Below are positions 1,429 to 13,645 of a DNA stretch of 64,000 bases, piece after piece (position 1 is the first letter of the stretch; each line of letters starts with the position of its first letter). The stretch is taken from NCBI GenBank assembly GCA_019358935.1, contig JAHHIK010000012.1, positions 1 through 64,000 on the forward strand, given 5' to 3'. This DNA comes from Tolypothrix carrinoi HA7290-LM1 (lineage in GTDB: Bacteria; Cyanobacteriota; Cyanobacteriia; Cyanobacteriales; Nostocaceae). The notes beneath the pieces are model-generated. The model was not told where the DNA came from. It worked only from the letters and a program-made list of their open reading frames with translations, and did no database searches. A program made the position numbers and the translations under genes.

Positions 1429-1632
1429 ATGAATTACAAAACCATTACTTATCAAAGGGTAAAAAACCTTGGTAATTACGAAAGTGAACGACTAGAAATG
1501 ACCATTGAACTAAATGAAGGTGAGAACCCTTTGACTTGTGCAGACGCTTTAAGGCTAGATGTAAATTACATTTTAAATCAGACTGTTCCAGATCCAAAGC
1601 CATTGTCCAAAAAAGTAGAAGAGGGGTTTTAA
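1429..1632 (+). CDS. Phage-like small hypothetical protein (NLGNYES motif)
   Basis: 67 aa; GAGG upstream; KNLGNYESERLEMTIELNEGE. Confidence 0.7.
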   Translation: MNYKTITYQRVKNLGNYESERLEMTIELNEGENPLTCADALRLDVNYILNQTVPDPKPLSKKVEEGF

Positions 1633-1635
1633 ACC

Positions 1636-2037
1636 ATGAAAATTAAAAGATTACACGCACATTTTCTGATTTCAACTGGTAGTTACAACAACGAAAGAAT
1701 TGGATTTTCTGTTGAATTAAACGAGGGAGAATCTGTCGAAGAAATTGTAACTAATTTGAGATAAAAAGCAATAACTATTATTGGAGGAACAGCACAAGAG
1801 TATTACGACCGGATAAGAGAATTTAAACGCGAATGCCTTCAACTGGAAGAAAAATTAAATAAACTACGCAAGGAATGGGACGCAACAGCAGCATTTTTAA
1901 AAGCTCAAGGCTTAAATCCAGAAGCCCCATCAATGCCTCAGTTTCGCAACTTGCTTGAAGCTGTAACCGTACAGTCTGAAGTTGTCACAGAAGATGAGGA
2001 CGACGAGGAGGACGACGACGATGACGACGATTATTAA
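1636..2037 (+). pseudogene. Paralog of 1429-1632 with coiled coil and acidic tail, interrupted by an in-frame TAA at 1762-1764
   Basis: Manual translation: MKIKRLHAHFLISTGSYNNERIGFSVELNEGESVEEIVTNLR*KAITIIGG...EDEDDEEDDDDDDDY*; the frame stays open after the internal stop. Confidence 0.7.
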
Positions 2038-2038
2038 A

Positions 2039-2095
2039 CCGCCTGATGAGCTGGACTAAAAAAGCCGGCGAAACTCCCCCACAAGGGAGTCGCGG
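2039..2095 (+). ncRNA. Type I hammerhead ribozyme, predicted cleavage after C2091
   Basis: Stem I CCGC/GCGG; core CUGAUGA (2043-2049); stem II GCUGG/CCGGC; GAAA (2070-2073); stem III CUCCC/GGGAG; GUC triplet at 2089-2091. Confidence 0.9.
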
Positions 2096-2315
2096 ATCGA
2101 GTCCAAATCATTCGCCTGTAAACAGTGCAGTAATTTAGGGCTTTTCAGTGGAATCAAGCATCACTGCTTTTAATTATTTCATAAGCTCGGTTACTGCACT
2201 TTCTACAGTTTCCCTCGTAGTGCCATGCGGCACAGCCTTGAGAGTGAGTTAGGCTCCGTGCCTTTGGGTGATTCGCAGGCTTTTATACGGGGCTAGTAAC
2301 CAACAACCACACCCA
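2092..2315 (+). ncRNA. Structured non-coding RNA upstream of the IS110 recombinase (candidate bridge/guide RNA)
   Basis: Long stem AGUGCAGUAA/UUACUGCACU with inner CAGUG/CACUG; second domain closed by CCUCGUA/UACGGGG containing three hairpins; position 5' of the recombinase gene. Confidence 0.55.
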
Positions 2316-3515
2316 ATGCATATGAATAAAAGAATTTTGGGACTTGATATTAGCAAGTCCTCAGTTTCTATGTGCTTACTTGAAAGCAAGCCAAACGATC
2401 CACGTCAATTTTATTATGAATGTCCGTTTATGTTGTTTAGCGCCAACAGTGAGGGGATAAAAGCACTGTTGGCGCTAAAACCGGACATCGCAATTATGGA
2501 ACCGACCGGTGTTAATTACTCAAAGCTTTGGGGAACACACTTAGCCCGTGCCGGGGTCGAGGTCAGGCTTGTGGGACACAAAGAATTGAGGAATTACCGC
2601 TCGTCACATCTAAGTTTACCGGATAAGGATGATGATGCCGATGCCCTAGCACTGGCTTGTTACTACTTTGATTACTTCGATTCTCCCAGGCGCTTTGTCC
2701 AAATTCGGGACTTCACCACAACCCGCATCCGAGAACTGGTGCTGAGATTGGCTCACCTCAACCGGGTGCAATCGCCGATCGTCAATCGCTTACGTCAAGA
2801 TTTGGCGTGGCAGTTCCCGGAAATCGCACATGTAAATTCCCGGCGGGGAATTGATGGGGATGTGCCTTTATTGTGGGGTTGGTTGTGTGGGGAACGTAAA
2901 AGCAAACGATATGATAATTTGCGCGATCGCTCTATTGGGCTGGGAGTCACCGACACGGTTCGGCATCACGCCAGCCGTCTGTGTGACTTGCAACGAGAGG
3001 AACACAGCATTGAAACCGAGTTACACCAGCTTCTGGCTGACTCAAAGTTTACCGCTTACCGCCAGGTTTTCAAAAGCTTTGGTTTTGGGCTGCGCTTGGA
3101 GTCAATCATCCTCTCCCAAATTTACCCTATTGAGAATTACTTCGGTGCTGACGGTAAGCCAGAGGTGAGGATTCGTAAGGGTCGAAAGTCTGGAAAGCCA
3201 ACTAAACGTTACCTGTCACTACGTCGATTCCAGAAATCTCTAGGGCTTGCACCGTCCTTAGAAGCGTCCGGTGATAAAAGTAAAATTAAGATCCAAGGCG
3301 GTTCTGATTTGTGCCGTATTGCCTTCTGGCAATGGGTTTTTACTCGCATCGAGGTTAAGCGCTGCCGTCTAAATAACGAGATTGGGGAAATACTCGGCGC
3401 TCAGTTCGATACTGAAAAGGCAGCGGGGCGTCCAGTGAGGTTGGTGCGATCGCGCATTAGTGCCAAAGCTGCAAAGTTACTATTTCGGGAATTGGTAAAG
3501 GCAATTGTACAGTGA
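2316..3515 (+). CDS. IS110-family transposase/recombinase (DEDD RuvC-like domain plus Tnp domain)
   Basis: ILGLDISK, IMEPTG, KDDDADA (equivalent to KTDxxDA) and GLAPSLEASG with the catalytic Ser are all present; likely start ATG 2316 or 2322. Confidence 0.9.
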   Translation: MHMNKRILGLDISKSSVSMCLLESKPNDPRQFYYECPFMLFSANSEGIKALLALKPDIAIMEPTGVNYSKLWGTHLARAGVEVRLVGHKELRNYRSSHLSLPDKDDDADALALACYYFDYFDSPRRFVQIRDFTTTRIRELVLRLAHLNRVQSPIVNRLRQDLAWQFPEIAHVNSRRGIDGDVPLLWGWLCGERKSKRYDNLRDRSIGLGVTDTVRHHASRLCDLQREEHSIETELHQLLADSKFTAYRQVFKSFGFGLRLESIILSQIYPIENYFGADGKPEVRIRKGRKSGKPTKRYLSLRRFQKSLGLAPSLEASGDKSKIKIQGGSDLCRIAFWQWVFTRIEVKRCRLNNEIGEILGAQFDTEKAAGRPVRLVRSRISAKAAKLLFRELVKAIVQ

Positions 3516-3715
3516 CTAACAGAAACGATTCTTTTTCCCCTTGTCCTAATTGCCACTGTAACGCTTACGGACTATTCCCGTATTGGATCTTACGTGCCAA
3601 CCTAGAACAAGTGCGGGTTCGCTTATTCCACTGTGTTAACTGCGGTTACGAGCCAGAAGTTAAAGAAGCTAACTTAGTAGATCCAACTCAACGGGACAAA
3701 AGGACAAATAGGTAG
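3512..3715 (+). CDS. Small zinc-ribbon protein, translationally coupled to the IS110 gene
   Basis: CPNC...CVNC pairs; GTGA start/stop overlap. Confidence 0.6.
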   Translation: MTNRNDSFSPCPNCHCNAYGLFPYWILRANLEQVRVRLFHCVNCGYEPEVKEANLVDPTQRDKRTNR

Positions 3716-3802
3716 AATTATATTTGGTCAAACCTGCGGAGATGGGGGTCAGCTGTAAGGGCAGGTGTCGCTGTCCCAACCTCCTTTATAACTAACTAGA
3801 GT

Positions 3803-3988
3803 GAAATATTAAGCGAAACTCACTATCAACAACTTCCAGAAAAAGCGATTCAACGCTTGGGTATGCAACTCCATCAGAAAAATCTCTTGGTGCGGATGAC
3901 TTTACGGAGTTTGCACGCATCAATTACGAATCAACACGCTAATATCTTACGCGATTTAGTTTACCAGCGAATTCATCAAGGTGAATAA
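3803..3988 (+). pseudogene. Orphan C-terminal fragment of a PheS-related ligase (SrmL-like, ferredoxin-fold anticodon-binding-like domain)
   Basis: EILSETHYQQLPEKAIQRLGMQLHQKNLLVRMTLRSLHASITNQHANILRDLVYQRIHQGE*; in-frame TAG at 3797; family recalled, not searched. Confidence 0.55.
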
Positions 3989-4014
3989 CGCAAGTAGAAA
4001 GATACTCTCGTTCT

Positions 4015-4122
4015 CTCGTTCCCAGGTTCCACCTGGGAATGCCTACAAGTGGGCTGCTGCCTTTTGTATGCTAGAGGCAGAGCCTCTAAGAATCTGTTCC
4101 CAGGCTTCAGCCTGGGAACGAG
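4015..4122. repeat. REP/MITE-like inverted repeat
   Basis: CTCGTTCCCAGG...CCTGGGAACGAG ends with internal palindromes. Confidence 0.7.
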
Positions 4123-4145
4123 TGAGAACTCCTAACTCCTAACTT

Positions 4146-5405
4146 TTAACTTTTAACTTTCTCCACTCCTCGCATCGCTAAAAGCGCTGTCCCATACGCT
4201 GCCTGCGTATTTACAGGATGCGGCATGTCAACTTGCAAACACTTTGCTCTCATCGCTCCCCAAGTGTCATTCACCGCACCACCTCCAGCGGTGTAAACAC
4301 GCTTTAACTTATCTGCTCCAAGCCGCTGTAGTAATTCATACCCTCGATACTCTATCCGTGCCATACTTTCCAGCAACCCGTGTAAAAATTCCACAGGATT
4401 ATCTGGACGCGGTTCTAATCGCGGTGGTAAATTTGGGTCATTAATTGGAAAGCGATCGCCAATTTTCAACAACGGATAATAATCTAACCCGCAATATTTG
4501 CTTACATCAATTTCACGACTGTATTTTTCTAACTCAGCATCCGTGAAAAATTGCCGCAACACTGCACCCCCAGTATTAGAAGCACCCCCAGTTAACCACA
4601 AATCGCCTAAACGGTGGCTGTAAATTCCATACCTTGCATCTTCCACGCGGGTACGACTCAACAGCTTTAACACCAGCGTCGAACCCAGAGAAGTCACCGC
4701 ATCACCGGGTAATTTTGCACCACTGGCGATAAAAGCGGCGATACTATCAGTTGTACCCGCACACACTAAGCAATCTTTAAGGAAACCGAATTTAGCCGCA
4801 ATTTCTGGAAGTAATTGAGCGATCGCACTCCCAGGAGTTACTACTTTTGGTAGATGAATTCGTATTTGCAGTTCTTCTAGCCATTCCGGGTATCGAAAAT
4901 TTTCCACGTCATAACCCAACTTCAAAGCGTTGTGGTAATCGCTTATACCCAATTTTCCATGCAATAAAAACGCCAGCCAATCTGCCTGATGCATGAAATA
5001 TTTAGCTTCTGCGAAAGATGGTTGTAAGGACATCCACAGAAGTTTAACTAAGCTGGAAGTAGCGCTTAATACGGTATGATTTGCGGGTGCGACATTTTGC
5101 AAGCGTTCCAACATGACTGCACCCCGCGCATCATTGTACAACAGCGGTGCGTCTACAAGCTCTCCAGCGGCATCGCACAGCATGACGGTAGAGGAAGTTC
5201 CATTGATGGCGATCGCCTTTATTTTAAGGCGCAATTCTGAGGGGATTTGTTCTAACAAGGTAAACAAAGCCGTTTGCCAGCAAGTTGTCTTACCTTCATT
5301 TGACATGGACCAAGGATACCGCACCTCTGAAAGTATATTCCCTTCAAAGTCAATCACCACACCCCTAGCACCAGAAGTCCCAAAATCTATACCCAGATAA
5401 AACAT
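4146..5405 (-). CDS. FGGY-family carbohydrate (pentulose) kinase
   Basis: LGIDFGTSG, GTTDSIAA, SLGSTLV and TAGGGA motifs. Confidence 0.9.
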   Translation of the reverse strand: MFYLGIDFGTSGARGVVIDFEGNILSEVRYPWSMSNEGKTTCWQTALFTLLEQIPSELRLKIKAIAINGTSSTVMLCDAAGELVDAPLLYNDARGAVMLERLQNVAPANHTVLSATSSLVKLLWMSLQPSFAEAKYFMHQADWLAFLLHGKLGISDYHNALKLGYDVENFRYPEWLEELQIRIHLPKVVTPGSAIAQLLPEIAAKFGFLKDCLVCAGTTDSIAAFIASGAKLPGDAVTSLGSTLVLKLLSRTRVEDARYGIYSHRLGDLWLTGGASNTGGAVLRQFFTDAELEKYSREIDVSKYCGLDYYPLLKIGDRFPINDPNLPPRLEPRPDNPVEFLHGLLESMARIEYRGYELLQRLGADKLKRVYTAGGGAVNDTWGAMRAKCLQVDMPHPVNTQAAYGTALLAMRGVEKVKS

Positions 5406-7169: not shown

Positions 7170-8183
7170 ATGACTAACACAGCGATTAAAAGTCAAACCA
7201 CCACTGAAGTACTCGACATTCCTAAACAGGGAATGCCAGTCACAATTATTACAGGATTTTTAGGAAGCGGTAAAACCACGCTGCTTAACCAAATTCTCAA
7301 GAATAAGCATGACTTAAAAGTTGCTGTCCTTGTTAACGAATTTGGGGACATTAATATAGACAGTCAGTTGCTCGTATCAATGGATGAAGATATGGTAGAA
7401 CTGAGCAATGGCTGTATTTGTTGCACAATTAATGATGGCTTAGTTGATGCTGTTTATCGAGTTTTAGAGCGAGAAGATAACATCGATTATTTGGTAATTG
7501 AAACTACTGGTATTGCCGATCCACTGCCGATTATCCTTACCTTTCTCGGTACAGAACTTCGAGATTTAACTAAAATCGATTCTATCATAACTGTGGTAGA
7601 TTCAGAGGCGTTTACCCCGGAACATTACGAAAGTGATGCAGCATTAAAACAAATAACTTATGCAGATGTGATTCTGCTGAATAAAACTGACCTCGCAACT
7701 CCAGAAAAGTTGGAGGAATTAGAAGCTTATATTCAGGATGTGAAAGGGGGAACCAGAATTTTGCATACTAGATATGGGGAAGTAGCGTTACCTTTAATTT
7801 TAGATGTGCAGTTGACTCCAATAGATGAGTATACTTCTAAAGTGTCAGAAGATACTCACGAGCATCATCACCATCATGAGCATCACTCCAATCATTTAGA
7901 AAATGATGGATTTGTATCTGTATCTTTTGAAAGCGATCGCTCTTTTGATATCCACAAATTTCAAACATTTCTTACCGAACATTTGCCAGAAAATGTCTTT
8001 CGCGCTAAAGGTCTACTTTGGTTCAGCGACAGCAACTTAAGACATATTTTTCAACTTAGCGGACCGCGTTATCAATTAGATGCAGATGAATGGAAAACTC
8101 AGCCGAAAAATCAATTGGTTTTGATTGGTAAGCATCTGGATAATAGCAAAATTCACTCTTTACTAAACGAATGTTTAGTATAA
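7170..8183 (+). CDS. COG0523 (CobW/ZigA-like) G3E GTPase metallochaperone
   Basis: GFLGSGKTT, GCICC, ETTG, NKTD, His-rich tract and C-terminal FRAKG. Confidence 0.93.
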   Translation: MTNTAIKSQTTTEVLDIPKQGMPVTIITGFLGSGKTTLLNQILKNKHDLKVAVLVNEFGDINIDSQLLVSMDEDMVELSNGCICCTINDGLVDAVYRVLEREDNIDYLVIETTGIADPLPIILTFLGTELRDLTKIDSIITVVDSEAFTPEHYESDAALKQITYADVILLNKTDLATPEKLEELEAYIQDVKGGTRILHTRYGEVALPLILDVQLTPIDEYTSKVSEDTHEHHHHHEHHSNHLENDGFVSVSFESDRSFDIHKFQTFLTEHLPENVFRAKGLLWFSDSNLRHIFQLSGPRYQLDADEWKTQPKNQLVLIGKHLDNSKIHSLLNECLV

Positions 8184-13068: not shown

Positions 13069-13161
13069 TTATTTTTACCTAACGCGAAGGGCGATCGCCA
13101 AATATTAAAAAATGTAATGTAAATGTTAATAAAATGGTAAAAGTGGTAAGCTACTTTAATG

Positions 13162-13282
13162 CGATCGGTTCTGATGGAAAGCCATCAGACGCAAGGGGGA
13201 AAGTTCGGTGTAAATCCGGCACTGTCCCGCAACTGTGATGAGACGTGGAATCTAGTCTCAGAGTCAGAATGCCCGCCGATAG
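13162..13282 (+). ncRNA. Cobalamin riboswitch
   Basis: GGGAAAGTTCGGTGTAAATCCGGCACTGTCCCGCAACTGTGA...AGTCAGAATGCCCGCCGAT (B12 box) upstream of a TonB receptor gene. Confidence 0.92.
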
Positions 13283-13645
13283 TAACATTAAACACCCATC
13301 TGCGAGGTACGGATGATACATCAGAATTTTCATGTCAGCTACAGATATAAGTTGCAATTCGTGCATTACTTCCAATCAAATACTGTTCTTATTTGTTAAT
13401 AATTATTCTCATTAATTATTTAGTGTCTTGGTAGTTTTGCTTTGAAAGCATTAAGACACTAACGGTCTTCATCGTCATAAGTCTGCTTTCGATAAAGCAG
13501 ATAGGAATGAGCGCAAAATCTCTCTTAAACTCTGTGTCCTCTGCGATCTGGTGCGGTTCGTCCCGTCCGTAAAGGAGTGCGTAAGTCCTGGCAGATTTAA
13601 ATTTTGTTTGCGGAATAAACGAATTAACTCACAGCGACAAGTCTT

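Follow-up and report, generated by a model that had tools for sequence, protein, structure and literature searches.

A predicted hammerhead ribozyme fused to the bridge RNA of cargo-carrying IS110-type elements in Tolypothrix carrinoi and other cyanobacteria

The locus

The subject of this report is a stretch of 64,000 nucleotides at the start of contig JAHHIK010000012.1 of the cyanobacterium Tolypothrix carrinoi HA7290-LM1 (the whole stretch is called the window below), and in particular a predicted hammerhead ribozyme that stands between the last open reading frame (ORF) of a cargo region and the bridge RNA and recombinase gene of an IS110-type mobile element. The hammerhead parts were read directly from the sequence, the bridge RNA comes from a consensus fold, and the recombinase was recognised by Pfam and a profile search. 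All parts lie on the same strand:

1636..2037, + strand: last cargo ORF, with an acidic C-terminal tail; its stop codon TAA (2035-2037) is two bases 5' of stem I
2039-2042 with 2092-2095, + strand: stem I of the hammerhead, CCGC with GCGG
2043-2049, + strand: hammerhead core, CUGAUGA
2050-2054 with 2065-2069, + strand: stem II, GCUGG with CCGGC
2070-2072, + strand: hammerhead core, GAA
2073-2078 with 2085-2090, + strand: stem III, ACUCCC with GGGAGU
2091, + strand: C17, with the cut predicted 3' of it
2092..2286, + strand: bridge RNA, consisting of a 5' stem-loop, a target-binding loop, a variable hairpin and a donor-binding loop
2316..3515, + strand: IS110-family DEDD recombinase, 399 aa
3512..3715, + strand: Cys-rich, zinc-ribbon-like ORF, 67 aa, between recombinase and right end and overlapping the recombinase stop
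3796..3805, + strand: right end CTAGAGTGAA, of which the core (G)AA is part; from 3806 on, unrelated host DNA

The hammerhead and its conservation

A reading of the window from 1500 to 4200 yields at 2039-2095 a complete type I hammerhead in which the core requirements are satisfied (CUGAUGA, GAA, and C2091 as an H17 that is not G), and each base that an earlier note on this DNA had listed for it is borne out. The pattern CTGANGAG-N8-30-CGAAAC-N8-30-GTC has a single match in the window and none in any of 100 dinucleotide shuffles; in the whole 7.96-Mb genome it has five matches (backwards-read control, 1+1), four of which sit 225-245 nt upstream of an IS110-like recombinase. The paralogous copies within this genome are 80-84% identical, and two of them keep the ribozyme, the differences being a U to C change at N7 and stem II substitutions that leave the pairing intact. 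A fourth copy, on contig C102, has diverged much further: its stems II and III are different, and it too lies 5' of an IS110-like gene.

The helices covary. In a MAFFT alignment of 25 canonical copies 91% of the stem cells are paired, as against 77.5% with shuffled partners (0 of 500 shuffles reach 91%) and 27-41% with slid partners, and both-sided changes occur in three of the five stem II pairs and six of the eight stem III pairs. A covariance model built from this alignment (R1) collected 61 copies, 60 of them distinct, for which the corresponding values are 95.9% and 73.7%, with a covariation score of 0.555 vs 0.153 and both-sided changes in 4/5 stem II and 5/6 stem III pairs, these last figures coming from an alignment that was fitted to the model and is therefore biased towards it. 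Stem I is nearly invariant, so that covariation is uninformative about it. As for the core, G12, A13 and A14 are kept in 61/61 copies, as is the A15.1-U16.1 pair (A-U in 60/60 distinct copies), and G10.1-C11.1 is G-C in 55 of 60. Position H17 is C in 57 copies, A in two, U in one and G in none, and the sole freely varying core base is N7 (U 38, C 14, A 2, G 1). Judged by the aligned copies, core conservation matches the textbook hammerhead pattern. At this level the hammerhead in the window is confirmed, and the complete ribozyme with three stems proposed in the earlier note is supported by the covariation of stems II and III and by a core kept across the family.

The Rfam models do not call this hammerhead. 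No hammerhead was found in the searched window sequence at gathering thresholds, nor at E<=10 on a 501-nt stretch, whereas on a 91-nt stretch the whole core aligned with both Hammerhead_1 (RF00163; 12.7 bits, cut-off 34) and RAGATH-1-hammerhead (RF03152; 14.4 bits, cut-off 56.3). Of the Rfam check suggested earlier, the core alignment thus stood and the scores fell short.

One sub-lineage departs from the canonical form: 30-60 nt, usually two hairpins holding GCGATCGC, are inserted between A9 of CUGAUGA and the first stem II pair, while core and covarying stems are otherwise retained. This variant is found in L026-L032, L037 and L062 (e.g. L028:2658-2781) and in L274, L275 and L280, that is, in loci labelled Nostoc and also, with an unrelated insert sequence, in another family of the order. 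Its retention in at least two unrelated lineages suggests an architecture that is tolerated or perhaps functional.

A contact between loop II and the tail

Downstream of stem I lies a segment that takes part in both the ribozyme and the bridge RNA, as indicated by folding and by a pseudoknot test:

2096..2115, + strand: 3' tail and hairpin after stem I

The sequence UGGACU (2052-2057) is complementary to AGUCCA (2100-2105), a pairing that belongs to the minimum-energy fold of 2030-2115 (ViennaRNA), and the predicted pseudoknot joins AGUCC (2100-2104) to GGACU (2053-2057), which spans stem II and loop II. A column-wise count of kissing pairs in the 25-sequence alignment was weak (74% paired, one compensatory cell) and was replaced by a test made sequence by sequence, in which the tail 5-20 nt past stem I was searched for complementarity to loop II. 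At least five contiguous base pairs are present in 29 of 54 distinct copies, whereas with tails exchanged at random between copies 1000 trials average 11.1 and never exceed 20. From lineage to lineage the pairing uses different words (GACUC/GAGUC, GACACA/UGUGUC, GAAGC/GCUUC, GAUCC/GGAUC, UGGAAUC/GAUUCCA and AACCCA/UGGGUU). What had been noted as a possible loop-tail contact exceeds permuted pairings and covaries as a pseudoknot. Pseudoknots of the same type have been found in all three hammerhead topologies and are needed at physiological Mg2+, according to the sections of Perreault et al. (2011, PMC3088659) on this motif.

Bridge RNA and guides

The 220 nt between the ribozyme and the recombinase start codon are, among the copies in this genome, better conserved than the coding region. 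Two modules are visible in an alignment of 31 loci. The target module reads UUAGGGCUUUU-(~6 variable nt)-GAA-(U/A)CAAGC...GCUUU(U/C)-(5 variable nt)-UUC-(A/G)UAAGCUCGG, and the donor module, which is invariant, reads ...CCUU-GAGAGUGA(A/G)-...-GGGUGAUUC-GCAGGC. With 30 sequences RNAalifold gives 43 consensus pairs, 15 of them with compensatory changes, and recovers the outer and inner stems of both modules together with the variable hairpin between them, the whole forming two stem-loops with internal loops. The guides in the window are as follows:

2146..2153, + strand: left target guide CAGUGGAA, made up of the first variable segment and GAA; same sequence as the left flank with the core
2175..2180, + strand: right target guide UAUUUC, reverse complement of the core GAA plus ATA of the right flank
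2240..2248, + strand: left donor guide GAGAGUGAG, matching the right end ...AGAGTGA(A)
2266..2274, + strand: right donor guide GGGUGAUUC, reverse complement of the core plus left end GAA|TCCCC, with one mismatch

The left target guide equals the left flank at all four left junctions that have been located, over 8 nt for the window (with contig C47), 8 nt for the copy on C127 (with C59), 10 nt for G004:C45 and 8 nt for G170; of these, the window/C47 junction is the only one located independently of element motifs, by way of empty sites. On the other side, the right target guide equals the first five flank bases in 17/28 loci, against an average of 0.67 and at most 4 in 2000 permutations. The 11 misses are the window, where three flank bases match contiguously (3 of 6), C98, L023, L030 (whose flank is cut off), L031, L033, L035, L040, L045, L049 and L056. 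With respect to the donor, GAGAGUGA(A/G) in the module corresponds to the end ...AGAGTGAA. We conclude from these matches that the RNA predicted at 2092-2286 is a real bridge RNA, with guides for both target and donor DNA; the guide RNA that the earlier note had placed in the non-coding region now has guides matching target flanks and element ends.

Two copies in the same genome deserve separate mention. Those on C98 (L071) and C127 (L072) have near-identical bridge RNAs and share a recombinase frameshift, and their hammerheads and flanks differ; the C98 guide mismatches its own right flank. This suggests gene conversion between the two.

The element and its cargo

By its boundaries, the unit in the window is no 1.7-kb insertion sequence (IS) but the right-hand module of an IS110-type element with cargo. 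Of 56 sources scanned, 50 (48 of these are listed) contain CTAGAGTGAA a single time, 3' of the recombinase, and because the flank beyond it is never the same from one locus to the next, it defines the right end. Empty sites of the form ...GTCAGTGGAA|ATATTAAG are present in the sister genomes G001, G003 and G005, and the right flank of the window (from 3806) is uninterrupted in these three genomes (...TTAGAGTCAGTGGAA|ATATTAAGCG...). The left junction, ...GTCAGTGGAA|TCCCCAGACTTC..., lies in the same genome on another contig (G000:C47:58833), so that the left end is more than 2 kb upstream of the hammerhead and the copy measures at least 4.2 kb. A search for a join between C47 and C12 by their 31-nt contig-end words found neither word in the other contig, that of C47 occurring in C47 and C59 only and that of C12 in C12 only. 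At least 12 further left ends are found in this genome.

Two related elements could be delimited within single contigs. The element on G004:C45 is 7,831 bp long, with its left end 6.3 kb upstream of the hammerhead; along its sense strand follow a 124-aa ORF, a 419-aa P-loop ATPase, a 117-aa ORF, hammerhead, bridge RNA and recombinase, and its opposite strand carries an 854-aa ORF and small ORFs. That of G170, a genome in one contig, is 19,017 bp long, with its left end 17.5 kb upstream of the hammerhead; a second copy of about 19 kb is 88% identical at the left and identical in the ribozyme stretch. None of the located elements is a compact one of 1-2.5 kb with a terminal bridge RNA. The earlier note had envisaged a ribozyme, guide and recombinase unit beside an upstream phage-like operon: the unit stands, and the operon proves to be included with it in one larger element whose left end is kilobases upstream.

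Two other arrangements were considered and rejected. That the hammerhead was merely the insertion target of a small IS conflicts with the empty sites in G001, G003 and G005, which have no hammerhead, and with junctions at 3805/3806 and on contig C47; a left end just 5' of the hammerhead is ruled out for the four elements with located left junctions. L053, which lacks a hammerhead, has a possible left end, TAGA|TTCCCCC, some 60 nt 5' of its bridge RNA, though the flank there mismatches the left guide. A left-end pattern search in the five named-locus genomes returned only the left ends of other copies, none of which fits the left guides of L021, L023 or L056.

Various remnants of such elements were also seen. 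A doubled left end, at G000:C47:58834-58971 and G000:C59:51561-51698, consists of a 138-bp unit TCCCCAGAC...ACAGTGAA followed by a second GAA|TCCCCAGAGCG, and looks like either a fossil junction of right end and left end (RE-LE) or a miniature derivative. Many decayed copies consist of a left end, a 3' part of the recombinase and a right end (G000:C21:45871-47548, C145:5098-6399 and C178:9366-9904; also G009:C16, C17 and C48), and in G009 the window's target site holds just the last ~60 nt of the recombinase and CTAGAGTGAA.

The cargo is sparsely annotated. With Pfam, PHROGs and PADLOC the only assignments are a weak P-loop ATPase, an Xre-type repressor and a weak helix-turn-helix (HTH)/excisionase-like match, so that the label "phage-like" is loosely supported. 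Upstream of the C98 and C127 copies are same-strand small ORFs, a P-loop ATPase, an HTH/excisionase-like protein and a divergent Xre-type repressor. The 419-aa P-loop ATPase recurs in the C98 copy and has a weak PADLOC match to mad8; the 854-aa ORF of G004:C45 (L093:5532-8096, + strand) had no match in Pfam or PADLOC, and the last cargo ORF of the window matched no Pfam or PHROG family. This last ORF contains an in-frame TAA at 1762-1764, absent from the earlier note, which splits it into 42 and 90 aa, and its homologue in the C98 copy is an uninterrupted 206-aa ORF; 1636-2037 would seem to be either a pseudogene or two small genes.

The recombinase matches PF01548 (DEDD_Tnp_IS110) with 31.5 bits (cut-off 29), as do 23/23 family members, and PF02371 (Transposase_20) with 17.1 bits, under the cut-off of 21.3. 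A single-sequence search of the PDB with the recombinase gave no match, and a profile of the 23 members matched the ISCro4 transposase 9t56_A (E 1.5e-7). In the 23-member alignment D11, E62, D106, D109 and S318 are invariant, as is the S318-G319 pair, which a weak second stretch of alignment places on the SG of ISCro4. The window recombinase is the sole intact copy in its genome: those on C98 and C127 share one frameshift, and those on C102 and C49 carry stops. The Cys-rich ORF was seen only in the window and C98 copies, and its C98 homologue has weak Pfam matches to Cas12f1-like_TNB (E 1.9e-4) and Zn_ribbon_IS1595.

Outside the element, short palindromic or repeated segments at 4005-4126 and 4127-4160 are found again on numerous contigs, both in T. 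carrinoi and in related genomes, and look like repeats of the MITE (miniature inverted-repeat transposable element) type. Farther along the window are a CobW-type GTPase gene (7170-8183) and a cobalamin riboswitch (13149-13294; Rfam RF00174, 54.3 bits).

Distribution

Relatives of the recombinase, sampled in one genome per species, gave 51 loci, all cyanobacterial and mostly from Nostocales, and in 31 of them a hammerhead lies ~180-290 nt upstream (22 canonical and nine with the insertion). The other 20 comprise 17 whose matched stretch does not include the recombinase N-terminus, the broken copies L052 and L069, and the full-length L053. In an order-wide sample of 151 genomes from 81 genera, R1 has matches in 21 genomes and 17 genera. 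All four matches in the T. carrinoi genome precede recombinases, and 20 of 26 new hammerhead loci have an IS110-like recombinase, 27-73% identical, 117-291 nt downstream; in one further locus, L103, the recombinase was recognised by the profile. As to the exceptions, in L107 the sequence stops 194 nt past the ribozyme, the L115 match is no hammerhead, and no recombinase was seen downstream of the hammerheads in L102, L110 and L124. The reverse test started from the recombinase profile, which matches 29 of the 151 order genomes; of the best 30 loci 28 were evaluable, and 24 of these have a hammerhead, 21 canonical and three with the insertion. Together with the first scan, this bears out the proposal that the hammerhead is conserved upstream of recombinase homologues.

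At the level of the phylum R1 matches 12/151 genomes, three of them in other orders of the class, and all six new loci have a recombinase 192-216 nt downstream; no R1 match turned up among the searched genomes of the families that form most of the remaining sample. On this sampling, hammerhead, bridge RNA and recombinase are kept together across several cyanobacterial orders, down to ~28% protein identity.

The same class of ribozyme is also common in viral contigs, where a pattern that includes the stem I sequence, CGCCUGANGA...GAAAC...GUCGCGG, matches more than 123 stretches. Among the viral matches listed these are mostly 20-45 nt before a ribosome-binding site and ATG, number up to six per contig, and have a loop II/tail contact of their own, UGGC/GCCA. 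For instance, L211/L212 (one IMG/VR contig), L195 and L165 carry three to six hammerheads within a few kilobases, each 5' of a gene start. An IS110-like gene is downstream in just one of the 80 loci examined from these more than 123 stretches, namely L197 on an IMG/VR contig; this contig has 16 copies in 5 kb of GCGATCGC, a palindrome that we take to be typical of cyanobacteria. Since hammerheads of this class are common between phage genes, in keeping with the prophage cases of Perreault et al. (2011, PMC3088659), they are a general tool of phage-like elements, of which the fusion to a bridge RNA is a special case.

Proposed role of the ribozyme

Sequence comparison shows how the ribozyme folds, how the guides match, where the element begins and ends, and that its parts keep their order. 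Considering these results together, we think it likely, with a probability of roughly 0.7, that the hammerhead is a 5'-processing device that frees the bridge RNA from an operon transcript. The element of the window runs from the left end (GAA|TCCCCAG..., on another contig) through the cargo and its last ORF to hammerhead, bridge RNA, recombinase, zinc-ribbon ORF and the right end CTAGAGTGAA. In elements of the IS621 type, transcription of the bridge RNA begins at a sigma-70 promoter that the excised circle re-creates where RE and LE meet, as described in the text of Durrant et al. (2024, PMC11208160). Here the bridge RNA is 2-17 kb from the left end, with intervening cargo that is partly on the opposite strand, and so out of reach of such a promoter; we infer that it is instead co-transcribed as the tail of the cargo operon, which would replace the circle-junction promoter, and that it is cleaved in vivo and benefits from a defined 5' end. 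The hammerhead would fold once 2036-2099 has been transcribed and cut after C2091, leaving a 3' product that begins at G2092 with a 5'-OH, at the base of the bridge RNA 5' stem-loop. In the predicted fold of this product GCGGAU (2092-2097) pairs with AUUCGC (2110-2115) to form the 5' hairpin of the bridge RNA, followed by the target and donor modules; the freed GCGG(AU) strand of stem I would thus re-pair, which would disfavour religation. Along with the bridge RNA, the cut would also free the recombinase message. The inference in the earlier note, that self-cleavage separates the recombinase unit from the upstream transcript and gives the guide RNA or the recombinase mRNA its 5' end, is supported in this form.

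As regards co-transcription, 34 of 58 loci have an open frame of 40 codons or more that runs on the same strand and stops no more than 38 nt from the core, vs 19% of background positions, and the stop codon is often 1-5 nt before stem I. A consensus scan of 640-2316 found no sigma-70-like site on the + strand, which is weak evidence.

Several observations weigh against this interpretation. A promoter inside the upstream ORF may still be compatible with the consensus scan. The Rfam hammerhead models score far under the curated cut-offs for the family. Stem I is short: 4 bp in the window, 3 bp in C102 and only 2 bp in C98. Some copies have core changes (U4C in L023, L048 and L056; C3U in L046; G10.1A in L022), and the guides of L046 and L048 still match their flanks despite them. 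The full-length L053 (51% identity) has a working-looking bridge RNA and no hammerhead, and in four of the 28 loci of the reverse test (L264, L272, L276 and L283) recombinase frames are open and the hammerhead is absent or degenerate; such losses and core mutations imply that the ribozyme is dispensable for the persistence of a copy. Loop II is ACUAAAAAA(G) in four copies (the window's own, C127, L022 and L045), where the pseudoknot must borrow two stem II bases; the window's loop reads ACUAAAAAAG. The region 2036-2099 on its own is predicted to fold as a three-way junction (-21.9 kcal/mol), but with 2100-2125 added a competing UGGACU/AGUCCA fold becomes ~6 kcal/mol more stable (-29.1 vs -23.3 with the hammerhead enforced). 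Finally, in view of the viral contigs, the presence of a hammerhead could reflect a general habit of such elements and not a need of the bridge RNA.

The pseudoknot partner lies within the bridge RNA, so that ribozyme and guide are structurally interlocked. More tentatively, and with the odds somewhat against it, the two may form one co-evolved maturation switch, in which the 5' hairpin of the bridge RNA provides the pseudoknot partner, the stem I strand refolds into the 5' stem-loop after the cut, so that cleavage is irreversible and licenses the folding of the guide, and a ribosome terminating on the last cargo ORF sets the timing. If this were true, operon induction, rather than circle formation, would decide when the recombinase is armed.

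Among the alternatives to a 5'-processing device for the guide, the one that survives best is generic operon punctuation, in which the cut gives the recombinase its own mRNA, with effects on stability or translation, and the bridge RNA merely happens to be in the leader. The placement of the viral hammerheads shortly before translation starts favours it, as do the bacterial hammerheads that lie close to integrase genes and flank genes of prophages, according to the relevant sections of Perreault et al. (2011, PMC3088659). The cyanobacterial elements, however, have one hammerhead each, always at the junction of cargo and bridge RNA (4/4 in the T. carrinoi genome); the cleavage site keeps a near-constant distance from the bridge RNA stems and not from the start codon, and the pseudoknot partner and the refolding hairpin both belong to the bridge RNA. 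We consider punctuation alone rather unlikely.

It seems improbable that the ribozyme is a regulatory switch or insulator, with cleavage tied to translation of the last cargo ORF or to transcription speed, which would either gate the supply of guide and recombinase or form the 3' end of the cargo mRNA. The alternative fold that beats the hammerhead once 2100-2125 is present would suit such a device, and so would the stop codons that abut stem I in many loci. Nevertheless, the competing pairing shares its bases with the covarying pseudoknot and may thus be a tertiary contact as rendered by a secondary-structure program, and no conserved ligand-binding or sensor element was seen. Least probable of all is a decaying or neutral passenger, inherited from a phage-like ancestor and now functionless: core mutations and losses do occur in some copies with open recombinase frames, but many mutated copies sit in elements with broken recombinases, and the core is invariant and the helices change in a compensatory manner across recombinases from ~90% to ~28% identity and several orders.

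Comparison with known systems

Bacterial hammerheads have been catalogued by the thousands, and ribozymes are no strangers to mobile elements: ribozymes like that of hepatitis delta virus (HDV) stand at the 5' end of R2 and other non-LTR (long terminal repeat) retrotransposons, and IStrons join a group I intron to a TnpB guide RNA. In these too the element's own ribozyme frees an RNA from a co-transcript of an upstream promoter; the ribozyme class, the element class and the fate of the RNA are all different from the present case. A guide RNA flanked by a hammerhead and an HDV ribozyme is a familiar engineered design. Expression constructs have placed an HDV ribozyme after bridge or seek RNAs, as given in the texts of PMC11208160 and PMC11187229. 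Such constructs resemble the locus described here in that a self-cleaving ribozyme would give a guide RNA an exact end independently of its promoter. They are laboratory products, mostly acting at the 3' end, whereas the natural hammerhead here is 5' and shares structure with the guide.

With the IS621 and ISCro4 systems, as presented in the relevant parts of PMC11208160 and PDB 9t56, the family has much in common: a DEDD RuvC-like recombinase; a non-coding RNA 5' of its gene, with a 5' stem-loop and two internal loops; left guides that equal the top strand and right guides that equal the reverse complement, with the core in all four pairings; and scarless, site-specific integration. It differs from them in its core, (G)AA vs CT, in the position of the bridge RNA, which is behind 2-17 kb of cargo, out of reach of a junction promoter, and not at the left end, in the hammerhead 5' of the bridge RNA and the extra variable hairpin between the loops, and in a C-terminal domain that is weakly recognisable (PF02371 in 9/23 members at E<=0.01).

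Cargo on IS110 elements has a precedent in those of up to ~100 kb described in August 2026 (Hu et al. 2026, bioRxiv 10.64898/2026.08.14.744561), in which, as here, an IS110 recombinase and a bridge RNA move kilobases of cargo and guides and flanks show half-matches. The cargo in that account includes plasmid-derived and resistance cargo, and that of the cyanobacterial elements is mostly of unassigned function. The main text of Hu et al. contains none of the terms "ribozyme", "promoter" or "cyanobacteri", its supplements being outside the search.

The closest relatives of the ribozyme itself are perhaps the pseudoknot hammerheads of prophages and phages (PMC3088659; RF00163, RF03152), which, from the published text and models, share the catalytic core, a short stem I (CGC/GCG[G]), the loop II/tail contact, and a location between the genes of a mobile-element operon with reported integrase proximity. 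The cyanobacterial hammerheads depart from them in missing the Rfam cut-offs, in the sub-lineage with an insertion of 30-60 nt between A9 and G10.1, and in that the product downstream is a guide RNA of known function and not an mRNA leader. The role of bacterial hammerheads in phage and prophage operons is described as unproven in the pertinent sections of Perreault et al. (2011, PMC3088659). Since the RNA downstream of the predicted cut is here a guide with a known function and a required architecture, the purpose of the cut becomes directly testable.

A full-text search of the literature, with bioRxiv supplements outside its reach, found no natural ribozyme linked to a bridge or seek RNA. 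Prophage-operon hammerheads and cargo-carrying IS110 elements are known separately; what appears to be new is a hammerhead fused to a bridge RNA. If the ribozyme acts as proposed, it would be a natural answer to the problem of making an exact guide RNA within a longer transcript when it has no promoter of its own. The elements also show how those of the IS110 type can gain cargo between the left end and the guide. The trio also defines a widespread and easily recognised cyanobacterial family of RNA-guided integrative elements, whose target code can be read.

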